Shown: positions 15,484-40,070, counted from the first letter of the stretch. The stretch: DNA of 64,000 bases from Candidatus Harrisonbacteria bacterium (GCA_023245035.1 JAHFLD010000001.1:196002-260001); one strand, 5' to 3'. Numbers and translations: made by a program. The notes: generated from the sequence alone by a model not told the origin.

Positions 15484-15592
15484 GCGAAAAATTGACAAAC
15501 TCCGGCAAAAAAACTAATCTACAAGCGTCCGTGTGATTGACTTTTCGTCACTTCTGATTGATCCTTGAAATAAACCAGGAGCAATAAATAGT

Positions 15593-16933
15593 ATGACCAT
15601 CAAACCAGAACTTGGAGCGGGTTTCAAAGATTATCTGCCCCAGGACGCCATTCCGCGCCAGCAAATGTTCGCCACTATCCAAAGAGTTTTTGAACTCTTT
15701 GGATACCAACCGCTTACGACGCCGGGCATTGAACGTGAAGAGATCTTGACCGGAGGCGACCCGAATTTTGACAAGCAGATCTTCCGCATCGCCGGTCAGT
15801 CCGGCGACAAGGATCTGGCTCTTCGTTTTGATTTGACCATACCTCTCGCTCGCGTCATCGCGGCCTACCCGCAAGAAATCAAGATGCCCTTCAAACGGTA
15901 TCAAGTTGGTTCGGTTTGGCGGGCCGAAAAACCGCAAGCCGGACGCTTCCGCGAATTTACTCAGTTTGACGCCGATGTCGTTGGCGCACCCGGAATGATG
16001 GCGGACGCCGAAATCGTGGCCATTATGTATGCCGTCATGACCGAACTCGGTTTCGGTGATCGCTTCAAGATTCGCGTCAACAACCGCAAAATCTTGAACG
16101 GTCTCGCCGCCTACGTTGGCTTCGCTTCGGAATTGAGCCCGATGGTCCTGCGCGTCATTGATAAAATGGACAAGATTGGTTGGGAGGGCGTAGCTCGAGA
16201 GCTCTCTACAGCAACCGAAGAGTTCGCGGGATTTTCCCCGTCACAGATGACTGCCATTAAGAGCTTTTTGGAAATTAGAGCGGACGGCAACTCCGGCATT
16301 CTGGAAGCGGTCGCCACGCTGATGGCAAACTCCAAAGAAGCCATGCAGGGCGTGGCCGAACTTCGGGAAATTCTGGACAGCCTCAAGGCTTTGAAAGTTC
16401 CCGACTCCGCCTGGGTGATTGACTTGTCGGTCGCTCGCGGTCTTGGCTACTACACCGGTCCCGTGTTCGAAACCATCCTGACCGACATTCCCGAACTTGG
16501 CAGTGTTTTCTCCGGCGGTCGCTACGATGACTTGGTAATGCGCTTCAGCTCCAACAAGGTTCCGGCCACCGGAGCCTCGGTCGGTGTTGATCGTATCTTC
16601 GCGGCCATGGAAAAACTGGGGTTGGTAAGGCAGCAAAAGAGTGTCGCCAAAGTGGTGGTTTTGAATTTCGACCCGACCTGCTCGGCAACGGTGCAGGGGA
16701 TTGTGTCGAACTTGCGCGCCGCAGGTTTGCCAAGCAATCTCTATCTTGGGCAAGAAAAGACGCTCAAAGGCCAACTCGCCTACGCCGTGAGTCAGGATGT
16801 TCCGGTCGTGGTGATTGTTGGCGCTACCGAAAATAGCTCCGGCGTGGCGCAGGTAAAAGATCTGAAGACCAGACAGCAAGTCGAAGTTCCGCAAAGCGAA
16901 ATTGTCGCCGCGGTTCAAAAGATATTGACCTAA
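15593..16933 (+). CDS. hisS: Histidyl-tRNA synthetase (alphaproteobacterial/eukaryote-like subtype)
   Basis: GFKDY, LRFDLTIPLAR, motif 2 WRAEKPQAGRFREFTQFDAD, ARGLGYYTG, GGRYD and a C-terminal anticodon-binding domain. Confidence 0.93.
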   Translation: MTIKPELGAGFKDYLPQDAIPRQQMFATIQRVFELFGYQPLTTPGIEREEILTGGDPNFDKQIFRIAGQSGDKDLALRFDLTIPLARVIAAYPQEIKMPFKRYQVGSVWRAEKPQAGRFREFTQFDADVVGAPGMMADAEIVAIMYAVMTELGFGDRFKIRVNNRKILNGLAAYVGFASELSPMVLRVIDKMDKIGWEGVARELSTATEEFAGFSPSQMTAIKSFLEIRADGNSGILEAVATLMANSKEAMQGVAELREILDSLKALKVPDSAWVIDLSVARGLGYYTGPVFETILTDIPELGSVFSGGRYDDLVMRFSSNKVPATGASVGVDRIFAAMEKLGLVRQQKSVAKVVVLNFDPTCSATVQGIVSNLRAAGLPSNLYLGQEKTLKGQLAYAVSQDVPVVVIVGATENSSGVAQVKDLKTRQQVEVPQSEIVAAVQKILT

Positions 16934-16953
16934 GGGATCGCTTCCGTTAGAAT
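16925..16953 (+). promoter_or_regulatory. Promoter for tRNA-His
   Basis: TTGACC, 17 bp spacer, TAGAAT, overlapping the end of hisS. Confidence 0.65.
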
Positions 16954-16963
16954 GGCTTCCGCC

Positions 16964-17036
16964 GGGTGTATAGCTCAATTGGTAGAGCGTCGGGTTGTGG
17001 TCCCGAAGGTTACGGGTTCAAAGCCCGTTACACCCC
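16964..17036 (+). tRNA. tRNA-His(GUG); G-1 and CCA not encoded
   Basis: Cloverleaf with acceptor GGGTGTA/TACACCC, D arm GCTC/GAGC, anticodon stem TCGGG/CCCGA with GTG at 16997-16999, T arm ACGGG-TTCAAAG-CCCGT and C73. Confidence 0.95.
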
Positions 17037-17081
17037 TCCCCCTCAACTGAAAAGTTGTGGGGGCTTTTTTTATTGATTACG

Positions 17082-17134
17082 AACCCGCCTTCGCTAAACT
17101 TGCCTGCCGGCAGGCAGGGCTACGGACGGGCAAG
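17082..17134. repeat. Nested short palindromic repeats (CCGCCTTCGCTAAA...CTACGG-type interrupted by CCTGCCGGCAGG)
   Basis: Visible palindromes resembling REP-like elements common in CPR intergenic DNA. Confidence 0.55.
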
Positions 17135-17346
17135 TTTACGACTAAAACAATGTACTCATTGTTCGTCCGGCCAAATGAGTACATTTGGCTTAGGAATTTT
17201 TTACGAATATACGAATTAAGAATCGCCTCACTCCTTGACTCCTTCGCGAAGACCTTTCTCCAGCAGGAATAAATGCAACTCAATGGCCTTGGCATATCGC
17301 AGTTGCATTTTATGCAAACTCCCTATACTATAGTGGCAAGTTTTAT

Positions 17347-17433
17347 ATGGAGAGCGCACCATTAATTCAAAGCCATTCGGTCGCGCCAGACCGGTCGCAT
17401 CGCCCGGGGCAGTAATTACTGCCCTCTTTTTTT
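17347..17433 (+). promoter_or_regulatory. Candidate attenuator leader of hutH (22-aa uORF plus terminator hairpin)
   Basis: uORF MESAPLIQSHSVAPDRSHRPGQ ends inside the palindrome GGGCAGTAATTACTGCCC, which is followed by TCTTTTTTT just before the hutH ATG. Confidence 0.45.
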
Positions 17434-17442
17434 AGATAAAAT

Positions 17443-18999
17443 ATGAAACAAATCATCGAAATCGGCCCCGATCGTCGTCTCACCGCCGAGATTGTAAAAC
17501 TGGTCGCCGAAGATCCAAAAGTTGAAGTCGCGCTCACCAAGCGCGCCAAAAATAAAATCACCGCCTCCCGCAAAGTGGTGGAAAAAATCGTCAAAGAAAA
17601 AATGGTGGTCTATGGAGTTTCCACCGGCTTCGGCAAGTTCAAAGACAAGGCGATTAACGAAAAAGACACCGCCGAATTGCAGAGCAACTTAATTCGCAGT
17701 CACGCGACCGGTGTCGGCGCCCCGCTGTCCGCGGAACTTGTCCGCGCTATTATGCTGGTGCGTCTCAACTCGCTCTCCCAAGGTTATTCCGGTGTTCGTC
17801 TGGAGCTGGTGGAGACCGGACTTAAAATACTCAACTCTGGTGTCATTCCCGTAGTGCCCGCGCAAGGATCGGTTGGCGCTTCGGGAGATTTGGCGCCGCT
17901 CTCGCACCTTGGTTTGGTGCTGATGGGCGAGGGCGAAGCTTGGTTTGGCGGCGAACGCTTGCCTGGCGGGGAGGCCATGTCTCGCGCCGGAATCAAGCCG
18001 ATTATCTTCTCCTCTAAAGAAGGTCTGGCCTGGACCAACGGCACCGCTTTTATGACTGGCATCGCCTCGCTGGCGTTTGAAAAAGCCAAGCACCTGCTAG
18101 ATGTTGCCGACATCGCTTGCGCCTTAACTTTAGAGGGAGTCGCCGGAATCCCAACCGCCTTTGACGAGCGCATTCACCAGCTCCGCGAGCATCCGGGGCA
18201 AATCAAGGTTGCCGAGCACATCCGTGCCCTAACCAAAAATTCCAAATTGGTTAACAAGTTTCCGCAAAGGATTCAGGACTCCTACACGCTCCGTTGCGCT
18301 CCCCAAGTTCACGGCGCGGTGCGCGACGCCGTCTCCTATGTTGAAAAAGTTTTGGAACGCGAACTGCGCGCCGTCACCGACAATCCGTTGATTTTTAACG
18401 AACCGCCCTATGCTCTTTCCGGTGGCAATTTTCACGGCCAGCCGCTTTCAATTTCTATGGATGTCCTCAAAATTGCCATCTCGGGATTGGGTAATATCTC
18501 CGAACGCCGAACCGCCAAACTGGTAGACTCGGCGACTAACGAAGGTTTGCCGCTCTTCCTGATTCCCAAAGAAAAAGCCGGACTGCACAACGGCTTTATG
18601 ATTCCGCAATATACCGCCGCCGCCCTCGTCTCGGAAAATAAGATTCTTTCTCATCCCGCCTCGGTTGATTCCATTCCGACCTCCGCTAACCAAGAGGATC
18701 ATGTAAGCATGGGTTCCATCGCCGCCCGCAAGGCGCTCGAAGTTGTGCAAAACGCGGAGAACATTCTGGCGATTGAACTTCTAACCGCCGCCCAAGCCGT
18801 GGAATTCCGCGACCCGCAAAAACTGGGGCAGGGAACTAAAAAAGCCTACAAAATTATCCGAGCTAAAGTTGCCCCGCTGACCCACGACCGCGTCTTGCAT
18901 TATGATATAGTAGCCGTACAGCAAATAATCGCCGGCAAAAAGCTGGCCAAGATTTTGGAAAATCAAACCGCTAATGGAGCCAAAAAAAGCCGAAACTAA
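17443..18999 (+). CDS. hutH: Histidine ammonia-lyase
   Basis: YGVSTGFG, LIRSHATG (HAL-type SH), MIO-forming GSVGASGDLAPL, QDSYTLRC and NQEDHVSM. Confidence 0.92.
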   Translation: MKQIIEIGPDRRLTAEIVKLVAEDPKVEVALTKRAKNKITASRKVVEKIVKEKMVVYGVSTGFGKFKDKAINEKDTAELQSNLIRSHATGVGAPLSAELVRAIMLVRLNSLSQGYSGVRLELVETGLKILNSGVIPVVPAQGSVGASGDLAPLSHLGLVLMGEGEAWFGGERLPGGEAMSRAGIKPIIFSSKEGLAWTNGTAFMTGIASLAFEKAKHLLDVADIACALTLEGVAGIPTAFDERIHQLREHPGQIKVAEHIRALTKNSKLVNKFPQRIQDSYTLRCAPQVHGAVRDAVSYVEKVLERELRAVTDNPLIFNEPPYALSGGNFHGQPLSISMDVLKIAISGLGNISERRTAKLVDSATNEGLPLFLIPKEKAGLHNGFMIPQYTAAALVSENKILSHPASVDSIPTSANQEDHVSMGSIAARKALEVVQNAENILAIELLTAAQAVEFRDPQKLGQGTKKAYKIIRAKVAPLTHDRVLHYDIVAVQQIIAGKKLAKILENQTANGAKKSRN

Positions 19000-20134
19000 A
19001 ACCGAAAAAATACTTCAGCAACTCATTTCCATTCCGAGCTATGTTGATCAAAAAACCGATGAAGGAAAAATCGGCGATTTTGTCTGCGACTATCTCGCCC
19101 GCTTTTCGCATCTTCGAATAGAAAGGCAAAACCTCGGCGGACAAAGAGCTAACATCATCGTTCGCACGCCGGGCATTCCCAATCTTCTCATCGCCGCCCA
19201 CTTGGACACCGTGGAACCAAAAACCGGCTGGGCTAGTGATCAGTTTTTGCCGCAAATAAACAATGACAAGTTATACGGCCTGGGCGCGGTAGACACCAAG
19301 GGAGGCATTGCCGCCTTGCTTGTAGCGCTCGGCGAAGCCGAATCCGCCAGCGGAGTCACGGCTCTTTTTTACTGCGACGAAGAATATCACTTTGCCGGAA
19401 TGAAGCATTTTTTGGCGAACGAACCAAAATCCTCTTACACTTTAGCTATCGTAACCGAACCGACCGATCTAAAAATCTGGAACGCGCACCGCGGTCTGAT
19501 TCAAGTCCGCCTCATAGTTCGCGGAAAAACCGGTCACGCGGCCAATCCAGAGAGCGGTATCAACGCCATTAAAGGACTTGCGAATGTTCTGCGAGCGGTT
19601 GAGCACTCGCTCAAAAAATGGAAGACCAGAGAATTAAAACAATCAACCATGAATCTTGCTTTTATGCGAGGCGGTCTTGATCGTGGCGCGCGCGACGACC
19701 GGGGCGAAACCATCCTCGGTTCAATGGGCAATAACATCGCCGACTACGCCGAAGCGGTAGTCGAAGTCCGGTCAGCGAACTCAAAGCTCAACGGTCAAAA
19801 ATTGAGCGAGTTGTTGCATCAAGCCTGCGCCAAAGAAAATCTAAAAATAGAAAAAATACAAATCGAACTAGATCTCCAAGCCCTGGTGACGGAAAAAAAG
19901 AAACTGCGCCCCCTGGAATTATTGCTGAAAAATTCCGGAATAAAAGTTTCCTATCTTGATCCGGCAAAAAAGGGCTACAGCGACGGCCAGCTGATTTCCG
20001 AAAAATGGAACCTGCCCGTGGCCTATCTTGGGCCAAGTGGTGGCAATATGCACGGAGTAAATGAATGGGTCAGTCTGGATTCTTTGCGCTTGCTGGGGGA
20101 TTTCTACCGAGTCTTGCTCAAAAGACCGGAATAA
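18974..20134 (+). CDS. M20 family (ArgE/DapE-like) metallo-deacylase
   Basis: AHLDTV, GLGAVDTKGG, DEE, EPT, GKTGHA and MHGVNE. Confidence 0.85.
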   Translation: MEPKKAETKTEKILQQLISIPSYVDQKTDEGKIGDFVCDYLARFSHLRIERQNLGGQRANIIVRTPGIPNLLIAAHLDTVEPKTGWASDQFLPQINNDKLYGLGAVDTKGGIAALLVALGEAESASGVTALFYCDEEYHFAGMKHFLANEPKSSYTLAIVTEPTDLKIWNAHRGLIQVRLIVRGKTGHAANPESGINAIKGLANVLRAVEHSLKKWKTRELKQSTMNLAFMRGGLDRGARDDRGETILGSMGNNIADYAEAVVEVRSANSKLNGQKLSELLHQACAKENLKIEKIQIELDLQALVTEKKKLRPLELLLKNSGIKVSYLDPAKKGYSDGQLISEKWNLPVAYLGPSGGNMHGVNEWVSLDSLRLLGDFYRVLLKRPE

Positions 20135-20181: not shown

Positions 20182-20844
20182 GTGTTGCAGAACTCGATTG
20201 AATTTGTCCGGTGCAACGGTTCCAAAAGTCTGGCTCCGGAGCTCATGGCGCAATTGTTTGATTGTTATCCGCCAATTTACGCCGAAGCTCCCTGGTTTGA
20301 ATGGAAGAAGTGCTCGGTGTGCAAACGGCAATGGGGGACGGTTCATCAAGAAGAACTGGCCCTAACCGACTTCATGCATTGCGGTGAGCCGCTGGTTGAA
20401 TTTTGGCCTAGAGCGACCGTTGAAAGCGACCTCAAAGAAGCGATGGATGCAAGCGGTGCTTCGTTCTGGCTCGCCCTTCAAGGGAATCGTTTGGTTGGCT
20501 TCTGCTATGGCTACGCCAAAACCCCCGAAAAACTGGAAGAGCAAATGGAGCGCCCCGGCTTGGCGCTAGCAGTCAAAGAAAAATTTGGCGCCTCGGTAAG
20601 ATACGTGGCCTATCAAGCGGACATCGCGCTCATTCCCGAATTTCGCGGTCGACATTTGGCAAGCCAGATGTTTGAACTGCGCCGCAAGGATTTTCTCGCT
20701 CAAGGGATGCAGATCGGCGTAGTCCGGGTCAAGATGGATCCGCCGAGCGTTACCTATCTCTGGTATACCACCAAGCTCGGTTACGAAGTCATTAGCGAAT
20801 ACCATGATGCCGGCAAGCGCGTTCTCCTCGCTCGAAGTCTGTAG
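20182..20844 (+). CDS. GNAT family acetyltransferase with Cys-rich insert
   Basis: YAEAPWFE, CSVC...HCG and acetyl-CoA motif PEFRGRHLA. AGGAGG upstream and terminator hairpin downstream. Confidence 0.75.
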   Translation: MLQNSIEFVRCNGSKSLAPELMAQLFDCYPPIYAEAPWFEWKKCSVCKRQWGTVHQEELALTDFMHCGEPLVEFWPRATVESDLKEAMDASGASFWLALQGNRLVGFCYGYAKTPEKLEEQMERPGLALAVKEKFGASVRYVAYQADIALIPEFRGRHLASQMFELRRKDFLAQGMQIGVVRVKMDPPSVTYLWYTTKLGYEVISEYHDAGKRVLLARSL

Positions 20845-38789: not shown

Positions 38790-40070
38790 ATGGGATCCGC
38801 GAAAAAAAAGGCCAATATCATCAAAGCTCCCGAAGGGATGTACGACATTCTTCCGTCGGAGTACATGATGTGGGATCGAATGCGCAAAGTTGTTCGGGAT
38901 TTCGCTGACTTCTACAATTTTTTTCGCATCGAAACATCGCTGATCGAGCGGGAAGAGCTCATGACACGATCTTTTGCGGTTGATGACGAGATGCGGGATC
39001 GGTCTTTTGTAATTCAAAAAGGCGGTGAACGCTTCGTTGTCCGCCGGGATCCGGCGCTTTCGGTTATTCGGGCCTATGTGGAGCACGGATTAAATTCCGC
39101 CAACCAGGCATTCAAAGTGTTTTACGAGGGCCAGATCTTCGATAAAAACGGTTTTAGCGATGCTCCTGAATTTCGGGAGGCTCATTGCGCCGGCTTTGAA
39201 GTTATTGACGGCGAATCCGATCCGGTTTACGACGCCCAAATTATTCTGACTCTCTGTCGGATACTGGAGGAACTGAAGGTAACGGGGATTACTATTGGAT
39301 TAAATACCTTATGCTGTCGCCACTGCCGCATGGGCTATCGCAAGCAAATCAACGAATACATCAAAGGCAAAAAAAACGATCTCTGCGCGCAGTGCGAGAA
39401 GCACTTGACCGGAAAAATAGAAAAGATTCTCATCTGTGAAAACGAAAAAGACAAGTTGGTGCGTGATAGTTATCCGGCCTCCGTGGATTACCTCTGCACC
39501 TATTGTCGGAGCGGTTTCAAAATAGTGTTTGAATATCTGGAAGAGCTTGGGCTGCAATACGCGCTTTCTCCGCGTCTCTCAAGCGATTGCGGATATACCA
39601 CCGGAACCTTGTTCGAAATCTACGGAGCCGACTTGCCGTATCCGCTCGCGAGCGGCGGTCGGCATGATTATCTGGTGGAATCCGTTGGCGGCAAGAATAC
39701 TCCGGCGGTTGGCGGCCTGATCTATCTCGATCGAGTCGCTCGCTGGCTTAAGGCTAAAGGGGTGACCATCGCTCCTCACCGAGCCAAACCAAAAACATTT
39801 TTGATTCACATTGGAGCTCTGGCTCGCAAAAAAGCCCTCGGACTCATTGAGCAATTACGCGAGTCCAATATTAGCGTCTGGGAATCTTTGGGTCGGGACG
39901 CGCTCGATGTTCAGCTTAAACTGGCGGCCAAAATGGAATCGCCGCTGGCTCTGATTTTCGGACAAAAAGAAGCTTTTGAAGACAGTATTATTGTGCGGGA
40001 TATGAAAAGCGGCATGCAGGAAACTGTTCCGCTAAAAAAAATAATTGAGGCCATCAAGAAAAGGCTGTGA
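38790..40070 (+). CDS. HisRS-like protein with degenerate catalytic motifs
   Basis: HisRS layout is retained (PEGMYDILP, DAQII, GGRHDYL, TPAVG, anticodon-binding domain), but LRPEGT, motif 2 and RGLDYY are replaced. Confidence 0.8.
   Translation: MGSAKKKANIIKAPEGMYDILPSEYMMWDRMRKVVRDFADFYNFFRIETSLIEREELMTRSFAVDDEMRDRSFVIQKGGERFVVRRDPALSVIRAYVEHGLNSANQAFKVFYEGQIFDKNGFSDAPEFREAHCAGFEVIDGESDPVYDAQIILTLCRILEELKVTGITIGLNTLCCRHCRMGYRKQINEYIKGKKNDLCAQCEKHLTGKIEKILICENEKDKLVRDSYPASVDYLCTYCRSGFKIVFEYLEELGLQYALSPRLSSDCGYTTGTLFEIYGADLPYPLASGGRHDYLVESVGGKNTPAVGGLIYLDRVARWLKAKGVTIAPHRAKPKTFLIHIGALARKKALGLIEQLRESNISVWESLGRDALDVQLKLAAKMESPLALIFGQKEAFEDSIIVRDMKSGMQETVPLKKIIEAIKKRL

Follow-up and report, generated by a model that had tools for sequence, protein, structure and literature searches.

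A tRNA-His gene without G-1 beside a relative of the Caulobacter-type histidyl-tRNA synthetase in Patescibacteria

Introduction

A few histidyl-tRNA synthetases (HisRS) are known to act on tRNA-His that lacks G-1, the guanosine before position 1. Among bacteria, a clade of alphaproteobacteria is named as the only exception to G-1, at least according to PMC4338351 and PMC9976931. A wider set of papers names two kinds of bacterial G-1-less cases: the alphaproteobacteria, and the 8/4 tRNA-His of phages and alphaproteobacteria (PMC3064791, PMC4357726, PMC4338351, PMC5389517, PMC5370408, PMC9437257, PMC9976931). The HisRS of Caulobacter loses 3-fold if A73 is changed to C, 5-fold if G-1 is added, and 91- to 1000-fold if the anticodon is changed; it also requires U72 (91-fold) and rejects the tRNA-His of E. 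coli (250-fold; PMC3064791). Outside of bacteria, G-1-independent or G-1-tolerant HisRS have been described from Trypanosoma brucei and Acanthamoeba castellanii (PMC4338351) and from C. elegans (PMC9976931). Recognition of G-1 or of the acceptor end in T. thermophilus involves contacts with R122, Q117, and the first glycine of the G-1 pocket (PMC4357726).

We do not know of a description of such a system in Patescibacteria. The available part of Mukai et al. 2017, which concerns synthetases from candidate phyla radiation (CPR) bacteria, mentions HisRS only for alphaproteobacteria (PMC5370408). Also, our search of the open-access literature found no paper on a G-1-less tRNA-His in Patescibacteria or in Acidobacteriota.

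Here we analyze a stretch of 64,000 nucleotides from Candidatus Harrisonbacteria (GCA_023245035.1 JAHFLD010000001.1:196002-260001), which we will call the window. The source genome, G000, is 716 kb and is 99.4% complete, and its nearest homologues by name place it in Patescibacteria. A preliminary description of the window had reported a tRNA-His gene without G-1 next to an unusual HisRS. Features of the window are given in its own coordinates, and all of them are on the plus strand.

Results

A tRNA-His gene with C at position -1

ARAGORN and Rfam each call one tRNA-His(GUG), at 16964-17036 (69.4 bits, full model). In the acceptor stem, GGGUGUA (16964-16970) pairs with UACACCC (17029-17035), so the top pairs are G1-C72, G2-C71, and G3-C70. 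The discriminator is C73 (17036), CCA is not encoded, and position -1 (16963) is C, which is unable to pair with C73. Because U8-A9-G10 (16971-16973) sets the register, position 1 falls at 16964, and the base there is not a G-1 read out of register; this placement, together with the full-model call, led us to reject a shifted register. The D-loop is 8 nt long, so the 9-nt D-loop with U20a of the Caulobacter type is absent, and the T loop has G60.

Could the missing G-1 be a sequencing error? Another genome from the same genus (G001) contains an identical 73-nt gene, C-1 included, and its linked hisS differs from that of the source genome at 43% of synonymous sites. The probability that a neutral 73-mer would be unchanged between these genomes is near 2e-18, so the tRNA gene is under selection. 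Furthermore, contigs from sequencing runs X1 and X3 span the site with 0 differences (X1 is possibly the source of the genome, and X3 is from the same study), and a contig from X5, which is from another study, spans it with 3 differing letters, none of them listed at 16963. The identity with G001 and the contigs from three runs and two studies exclude a sequencing error at 16963. The tRNA is as the preliminary description had it.

The tRNA may have its own promoter: a sigma-70-like sequence, TTGACC-17-TAGAAT (16925-16953), has 10 of 12 consensus matches. Its -35 box overlaps the stop of hisS, and the predicted leader of the tRNA is about 3 nt. This site is a consensus match only, as our scan returned 3 sites versus 1.8 by chance. 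There is a promoter-like sequence in the same register in G001, and by eye, hexamers that resemble the promoter are found in the 3' end of hisS in two more genomes (G115 and G309). After the tRNA, a hairpin with a U tract (17038-17071; -17 kcal/mol, z -3.3) resembles an intrinsic terminator. It is nearly identical in G001; a simple terminator scan did not list it. As an aside, a dispersed short repeat (17060-17230) lies between this terminator and hutH. It has roughly 20 partial blastn matches in the genome and is also found in many foreign contigs, and G001 lacks it at this place.

If G-1 is not encoded, it might be added. Dependence on a Thg1-like enzyme had been proposed. The genome, at 99.4% completeness, gave no match to the Thg1 families PF04446 and PF14413; the positive-control genome did match. 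Similarly, no Thg1 or Thg1C was found in any of the six further genomes that have a linked tRNA (described below). The genome does have an RNase P RNA, whose 99 bits fall slightly short of the gathering score. A broader version of the idea is that the mature tRNA gains a -1 nucleotide, either because an unrecognised Thg1-like protein adds G or because RNase P leaves C-1, and that the enzyme needs this extended 5' end. Thg1-like proteins could use C73 as a Watson-Crick template when adding G-1, and the predicted leader is very short, both of which suit this explanation. So does the HisRS of Aeropyrum, which accepts C-1 and A-1 (PMC9976931). However, besides the missing Thg1, A73 in three of the seven linked tRNAs argues against it, and C-1 is unable to form the pair with C73 by which RNase P cleavage is shifted (PMC3064791). 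We consider it very unlikely that a -1 nucleotide is gained.

The adjacent HisRS is a relative of the Caulobacter type

The adjacent hisS (15593-16933) encodes a type-2 (archaeal/eukaryote-like) HisRS. The protein is full-length, scores 365 bits against TIGR00442 (cut-off 287), and has intact class II catalytic motifs. Its best matches in PDB are 6nhi, 3net, and human HisRS, and it is about 25% identical to the type-1 HisRS of relatives. The preliminary description had quoted motifs from this protein as diagnostic of the Caulobacter subtype. These motifs are present, but most of them are general to type-2 enzymes, being shared by those of Bacteroidota, Bacillota, Nostoc, and human, and hence are not diagnostic of independence from G-1.

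We rooted a tree of 31 proteins on type-1 enzymes (model LG+G4; Caulobacter itself was not among them). The HisRS of this kind from Patescibacteria form a clade (support 99/99), as do the enzymes of Sinorhizobium, Methylobacterium, and Ruegeria together with those of Acidobacteriota and Planctomycetota (100/99). The two clades are sisters (95/97), and the first is not nested inside the second. Another tree, which was unrooted, agrees with the sister grouping, and two earlier trees left it unresolved. Also, an insert (G..D.SG, as defined from our own alignment) is present in 5 of 5 alphaproteobacterial and 71 of 71 Acidobacteriota/Planctomycetota enzymes versus 0 of the 120 best matches of our HisRS, and the motif-2 loop KP[GDE]xGR is likewise found in none of those 120. 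By sequence, then, our HisRS is a relative of the Caulobacter type and not a member of it. Of the likeness that had been claimed, the sister relationship stands, and the membership does not.

Near the G-1 pocket, the enzyme keeps the Q117 equivalent, the R122 equivalent, and the first pocket glycine, which counts against indifference to G-1. Gln is at the Q117 position in all 109 of the sequences that could be scored among its best 120 database matches; the sister clade (alphaproteobacteria with Acidobacteriota/Planctomycetota) has Gly, Asp, or Glu there. Lys is at the R115 equivalent in 82 of 109 members of the Patescibacteria clade and in all alphaproteobacterial and Acidobacteriota sequences scored. 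The pocket dipeptide is Gly-Asp, as compared to Asp-Asp in the Caulobacter type and Gly-Gly in canonical enzymes. This does not separate the groups, as Gly-Asp is also found in type-2 enzymes of Bacillota and the second residue is Lys in 8 of 21 intact native enzymes. A single-sequence structure prediction was unusable (pLDDT 38). In viral_contigs, a low-sensitivity test, there was no relative of this HisRS and no match to the linked-tRNA pattern, so a phage origin of the pair has no support from that source.

A second tRNA-His and a degenerate native HisRS

The genome contains another tRNA-His gene and another hisS-like gene, both of which were missed at first. A search for a second tRNA-His, as had been suggested, found a canonical gene (U-2, G-1, C73) at G000:C3:15318-15390, and this gene is identical in G001. 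The second hisS-like gene is within the window (38790-40070). It is part of a conserved lepB-hisS-yqeY-ybeY-ftsA-ftsZ locus (the names of the neighbors were read by eye from their translations), where relatives keep an ordinary type-1 enzyme. We scored HisRS proteins at 13 positions, in E. coli numbering, that we take to be catalytic. Most intact relatives score 13, and this native protein, though full-length, retains 4. It scores 228 bits against TIGR00442 (cut-off 287), retains the anticodon-binding domain PF03129, and is far under the cut-off for HisZ (101 versus 272 bits). Its dN/dS versus G001 is 0.032, which indicates that it is under purifying selection despite the loss of catalytic residues. 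With just 4 of the 13 catalytic residues left in the native protein, histidylation in the cell very likely falls to the type-2 enzyme alone, which would face two different tRNAs.

Linked tRNAs in seven genomes

In a protein search across 401 genomes of the order, 54 had type-2 enzymes at E <= 1e-50; the weaker matches were from other type-2 lineages. A tRNA-His is linked to an enzyme of our clade in seven genomes from six genera (G000, G001, G115, G309, G345, G602, and G726). Two more loci, L040 and L236, share the enzyme (87%) and the tRNA with G001 and were not counted separately. In G602 and G726, the tRNA is directly upstream of hisS. All seven linked tRNAs share the anticodon and start with GGG/CCC (G1-C72, G2-C71, G3-C70). 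In contrast, positions -1 and 73 vary: they are C and C in G000, G001, and G115; G and C in G309; G and A in G345; U and A in G602; and C and A in G726. That is, G-1 is absent from 5 of 7, the G-1:C73 pair is found in 1, and A73 is found in 3. The other tRNA-His genes in 57 genomes are uniform, with U-2, G-1, and C73 in 50 of 50 (this survey gave 67 rows, of which 12 were dropped by eye as tRNA-Leu or chance matches and 5 were linked). Free variation at both -1 and 73 is the pattern that would be allowed by an enzyme that ignores both positions. The earlier proposal of a co-adapted pair with a new identity set is thus upheld as to the linkage and as to the combination of no G-1 with G1-C72, which is unlike Caulobacter, but C73 is not constant within it.

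We also searched by pattern for tRNA-His without G-1. Of 401 genomes from the order, 5 had true tRNA-His genes of this form (G000, G001, G115, G383, and G163), as did 3 of 401 genomes from the phylum (G000, G602, and G726). Inspection by eye had first removed 37 of the 42 rows in the order and 7 of the 10 in the phylum, which were tRNA-Leu or chance matches, and because the patterns demand G1, U8-R9-G10, and an intact T loop, they can miss genes. Two results count against the explanation that we favor below. First, the linked tRNA is beside hisS in only 5 of the 37 clade loci that we checked. Second, G383 and G163 have tRNA-His-like genes without G-1 and no enzyme of the clade.

The latter genes are odd in themselves. 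The gene in G383 (L213/L329) has U-1, U72, and A73, and the gene in G163 (L214/L330), which has A-1 and U73 and no clade enzyme beside it, is the sole tRNA-His detected in that genome. They seem to be at the same locus in one genus, with type-1 HisRS intact and no Thg1. Another unusual arrangement is in G115, where the tRNA-His gene (L171:512-586) overlaps the last codons of hisS. The stop of hisS lies inside the tRNA at U8-A9-G10, and there is a promoter-like TTGACT-17-TAAAAT within the coding sequence. Finally, motif 2 of the HisRS from G602 and G726 (L405 and L406) lacks equivalents of both arginines with which the T. thermophilus enzyme clamps the phosphate of G-1. These two enzymes are the best candidates for true exclusion of G-1 and might be better suited to orthogonality.

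The sister clade

Of the 75 Acidobacteriota and Planctomycetota loci (L045-L119), 57 have tRNA-His near hisS and 53 have hutH. The neighboring tRNAs have G1.U72 in 56 of 56 cases, with A73 in 49 and G73 in 7, and G-1 is not conserved (33 U, 13 G, 5 A, and 5 C). This looks like the Caulobacter-type system outside of the alphaproteobacteria, with the alpha-type insert in the enzyme. In 22 of these genomes, we found no match to Thg1 and no canonical G-1:C73 gene (0 of 22), although the latter search had no positive control and is weak. Because the HisRS of Caulobacter needs U72 and rejects the tRNA-His of E. coli, the Patescibacteria clade must have changed the rules.

Decay of the native enzyme

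A native hisS homologue is kept in 46 of 50 genomes with a type-2 enzyme, and we examined the catalytic residues at 30 of these 46 loci. With degenerate defined as fewer than 11 of 13 catalytic residues, the native HisRS is degenerate in 24 of 26 genomes with the clade enzyme, by substitutions that differ between lineages, versus 9 of 57 native genes from genomes without it (the other 48 are intact). Where a more distant type-2 serves as the second enzyme, 8 of 10 native genes are also intact. There are 17 genomes that combine a degenerate native hisS with tRNA-His of the G-1:C73 kind only, as far as we found, so it appears that the clade accepts G-1. Most likely, these enzymes charge tRNA-His with or without G-1 by reading the anticodon.

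The exceptions with an intact native hisS (G115 and G345) carry the linked tRNA, as do G602 and G726, whose native enzymes are intact too. This fits a pair that was acquired recently. In G000, G001, and G309, the old enzyme is dead and both tRNAs are kept. Counting against the explanation that we favor, there are also seven genomes (G025, G248, G333, G337, G369, G382, and G385; 93-100% complete) with a degenerate native hisS in which no second HisRS was found. Either a second HisRS falls in assembly gaps, or the seemingly dead form is active in some genomes.

We noticed two other peculiarities of hisS in these genomes. G289 and G394 (L375 and L376) have an archaeal-type HisRS from outside the clade beside a degenerate native copy, which looks like an independent displacement. 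And in family f7 (G017, G159, G113, G185, G130, G073, and G049; L038 and L344), both hisS genes contain in-frame TGA. In G017 and G159 the TGA stands where motif 2 has its conserved Trp, which suggests that f7 reads UGA as Trp.

What is the canonical tRNA-His for, if there is one active HisRS? Perhaps our HisRS charges only the tRNA without G-1, which would then be the sole source of histidine for translation, and the canonical tRNA-His is a ligand of the dead native HisRS. Both tRNAs are identical in G000 and G001 and the dead hisS has a dN/dS of 0.03, as would be expected; the related enzyme from Caulobacter rejects E. coli tRNA-His 250-fold (PMC3064791), and the enzymes of G602 and G726 have lost both of the phosphate-clamping arginine equivalents. 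Nevertheless, we think that an exclusive pair is quite unlikely, as G-1:C73 is the only kind of tRNA-His in the 17 relatives whose native enzyme is degenerate, and our HisRS retains the R122 and Q117 equivalents. Another idea, which is unlikely too, is a division of labor: the transferred G-1-less pair would do the charging, and the dead HisRS would bind the old tRNA without catalysis, the two having some regulatory or structural role. This would include a third bacterial identity rule, with the anticodon as the only determinant, no G-1, no U72, and a free position 73. As for use as an orthogonal pair, which had been suggested, the second canonical tRNA and the clade's apparent charging of G-1:C73 tRNAs in relatives make full orthogonality unlikely.

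A histidine module beside the pair

The tRNA is followed by hutH (17443-18999), which encodes a histidine ammonia-lyase (TIGR01225, 662 bits, over the cut-off), by an M20 ArgE/DapE-like deacylase or peptidase (18974-20134), and by a GNAT acetyltransferase with conserved Cys pairs (20182-20844). The hutH-M20-GNAT-hisS set is also present in G404, and homologues of the GNAT are beside hisS in G345, G404, G726, and G264. Close homologues of this hutH (identity of about 60% or higher) are found in 5 of the 401 genomes of the order, always near a clade hisS, and urocanase was found in none of these 5, G000 included. The neighbors in the module include deacylases of M20 or AstE-like type, GNATs, a peptidase that resembles VanX, and a protein that resembles histidine racemase but scores below its cut-off. 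A DapF-like protein (L328:10257-11027 and L033:12190-12960), whose best match is histidine racemase (93 bits versus a cut-off of 400), adjoins the VanX-like peptidase and the GNAT.

Folding and homologous leaders indicate a 22-codon leader ORF before hutH (17347-17435), with 2 His codons and its stop in the loop of a terminator. There are 2 His codons in G000 and G001, 7 in G602, and 8 in G726. The leaders upstream of hutH in L405, L406, and L033 end in or just before an intrinsic terminator. When folded with a ribosome footprint, the leader is predicted to allow read-through once the ribosome completes it, i.e., if His-tRNA is plentiful. So we predict an attenuator that senses His-tRNA, with logic that is the reverse of a biosynthetic attenuator. 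None of the 53 Acidobacteriota/Planctomycetota hutH loci had a leader with 3 or more His.

Might the tRNA serve this module and not translation, as a dedicated donor of His-tRNA, or as a regulator, for the GNAT, the deacylase, and the ammonia-lyase? Some GNAT-fold enzymes do use aminoacyl-tRNA, and the linkage to hutH, GNAT, and deacylase is stable. G60 in the T loop, and the A49.C65 mismatch in the linked tRNAs of G345 and G309, would also suit a tRNA with a special role. But the tRNA scores against the full model, native tRNA-His genes also have the A49-U65 T-stem, the module is variable (no GNAT is beside the pair in G602), and the GNAT has no close relative among solved structures (the best has E = 0.047). 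Such a role seems highly improbable. We infer that the cassette of tRNA-His, hisS, and hutH descends from a G-1-independent lineage.

Discussion

What is new, as far as the sequences tell, is a tRNA-His without G-1 that has a Watson-Crick 1-72 pair and a free discriminator and that goes with a HisRS from the Patescibacteria clade that is sister to the Caulobacter type. It is conserved and rare. The explanation that we favor, with a probability of about 0.68, is that this tRNA arrived with, and is charged by, the adjacent HisRS, and that this HisRS is indifferent to G-1 and also serves the genome's G-1:C73 tRNA-His.

In this explanation, the tRNA would be transcribed from the promoter at the end of hisS. 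RNase P would cut at +1, since C-1 cannot pair with C73, and the mature tRNA would begin at G1; CCA would be added after transcription, and no G would be added at the 5' end. The HisRS would pick out the tRNA mainly by its GUG anticodon on a G1-C72/G3-C70 stem and would tolerate the presence or absence of G-1 and either C or A at position 73. Such reading of the anticodon would parallel the fold-losses of Caulobacter HisRS (PMC3064791) and would differ in not needing U72. As to history, a cassette of tRNA-His, hisS, and hutH from a G-1-independent lineage would have been passed around within Patescibacteria. Catalysis by the native HisRS would have been lost after the incoming enzyme had also taken over charging of the resident tRNA, and the native protein would have been retained for a non-catalytic role. 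Most lineages would never have had the cassette tRNA or would have lost it later. So the enzyme is probably G-1-indifferent rather than orthogonal, and any engineering value is probably one-way: E. coli HisRS should charge this tRNA poorly, while the type-2 HisRS probably charges the host's tRNA-His.

It is a long-standing question how a cell can exchange a synthetase, and with it the identity rule of a tRNA, and still translate. Here, there appears to be a second bacterial solution to the absence of G-1, without any of the acceptor determinants of Caulobacter, that has been caught in transition. The genomes form a series, from both enzymes intact, to an old enzyme that is dead with both tRNAs kept, to a dead old enzyme with the old tRNA only, and this makes the question testable.

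How does this compare to known systems? It resembles the delta-G-1 pair of Caulobacter crescentus (Yuan et al. 2011, PMC3064791) in that there is no encoded G-1, no Thg1, and an enzyme from a sister clade. It differs in that the tRNA has G1-C72 instead of G1.U72, C73 instead of A73, and no U20a; in that the HisRS has neither the G..D.SG insert nor the KP[GDE]xGR loop; and in that a canonical tRNA-His and the native HisRS, in degenerate form, persist in the genome. With the canonical system of E. coli and T. thermophilus (PDB 4RDX; PMC4357726), it shares C73, G1-C72, and the Q117 and R122 equivalents, but this tRNA lacks G-1, the enzyme is type-2, and the pocket is Gly-Asp and not Gly-Gly. The native hisS, which lacks catalytic residues yet is conserved, recalls HisZ, the inactive paralogue of HisRS (PMC9437257). 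Unlike HisZ, it keeps PF03129, scores just 101 bits against the HisZ cut-off of 272, and is at the ancestral hisS locus.

The archaeal-type TyrRS and TrpRS of CPR bacteria offer a parallel, with a foreign synthetase and a matching tRNA identity that are sometimes beside the native pair, although those cases involve Tyr and Trp and archaeal donors (Mukai et al. 2017, PMC5370408). The eukaryotic HisRS come closest to the mechanism that we predict: charging depends on the anticodon, with a Watson-Crick 1-72 pair and no G-1. They differ in being eukaryotic and of separate origin, and in that their discriminator is not C73.
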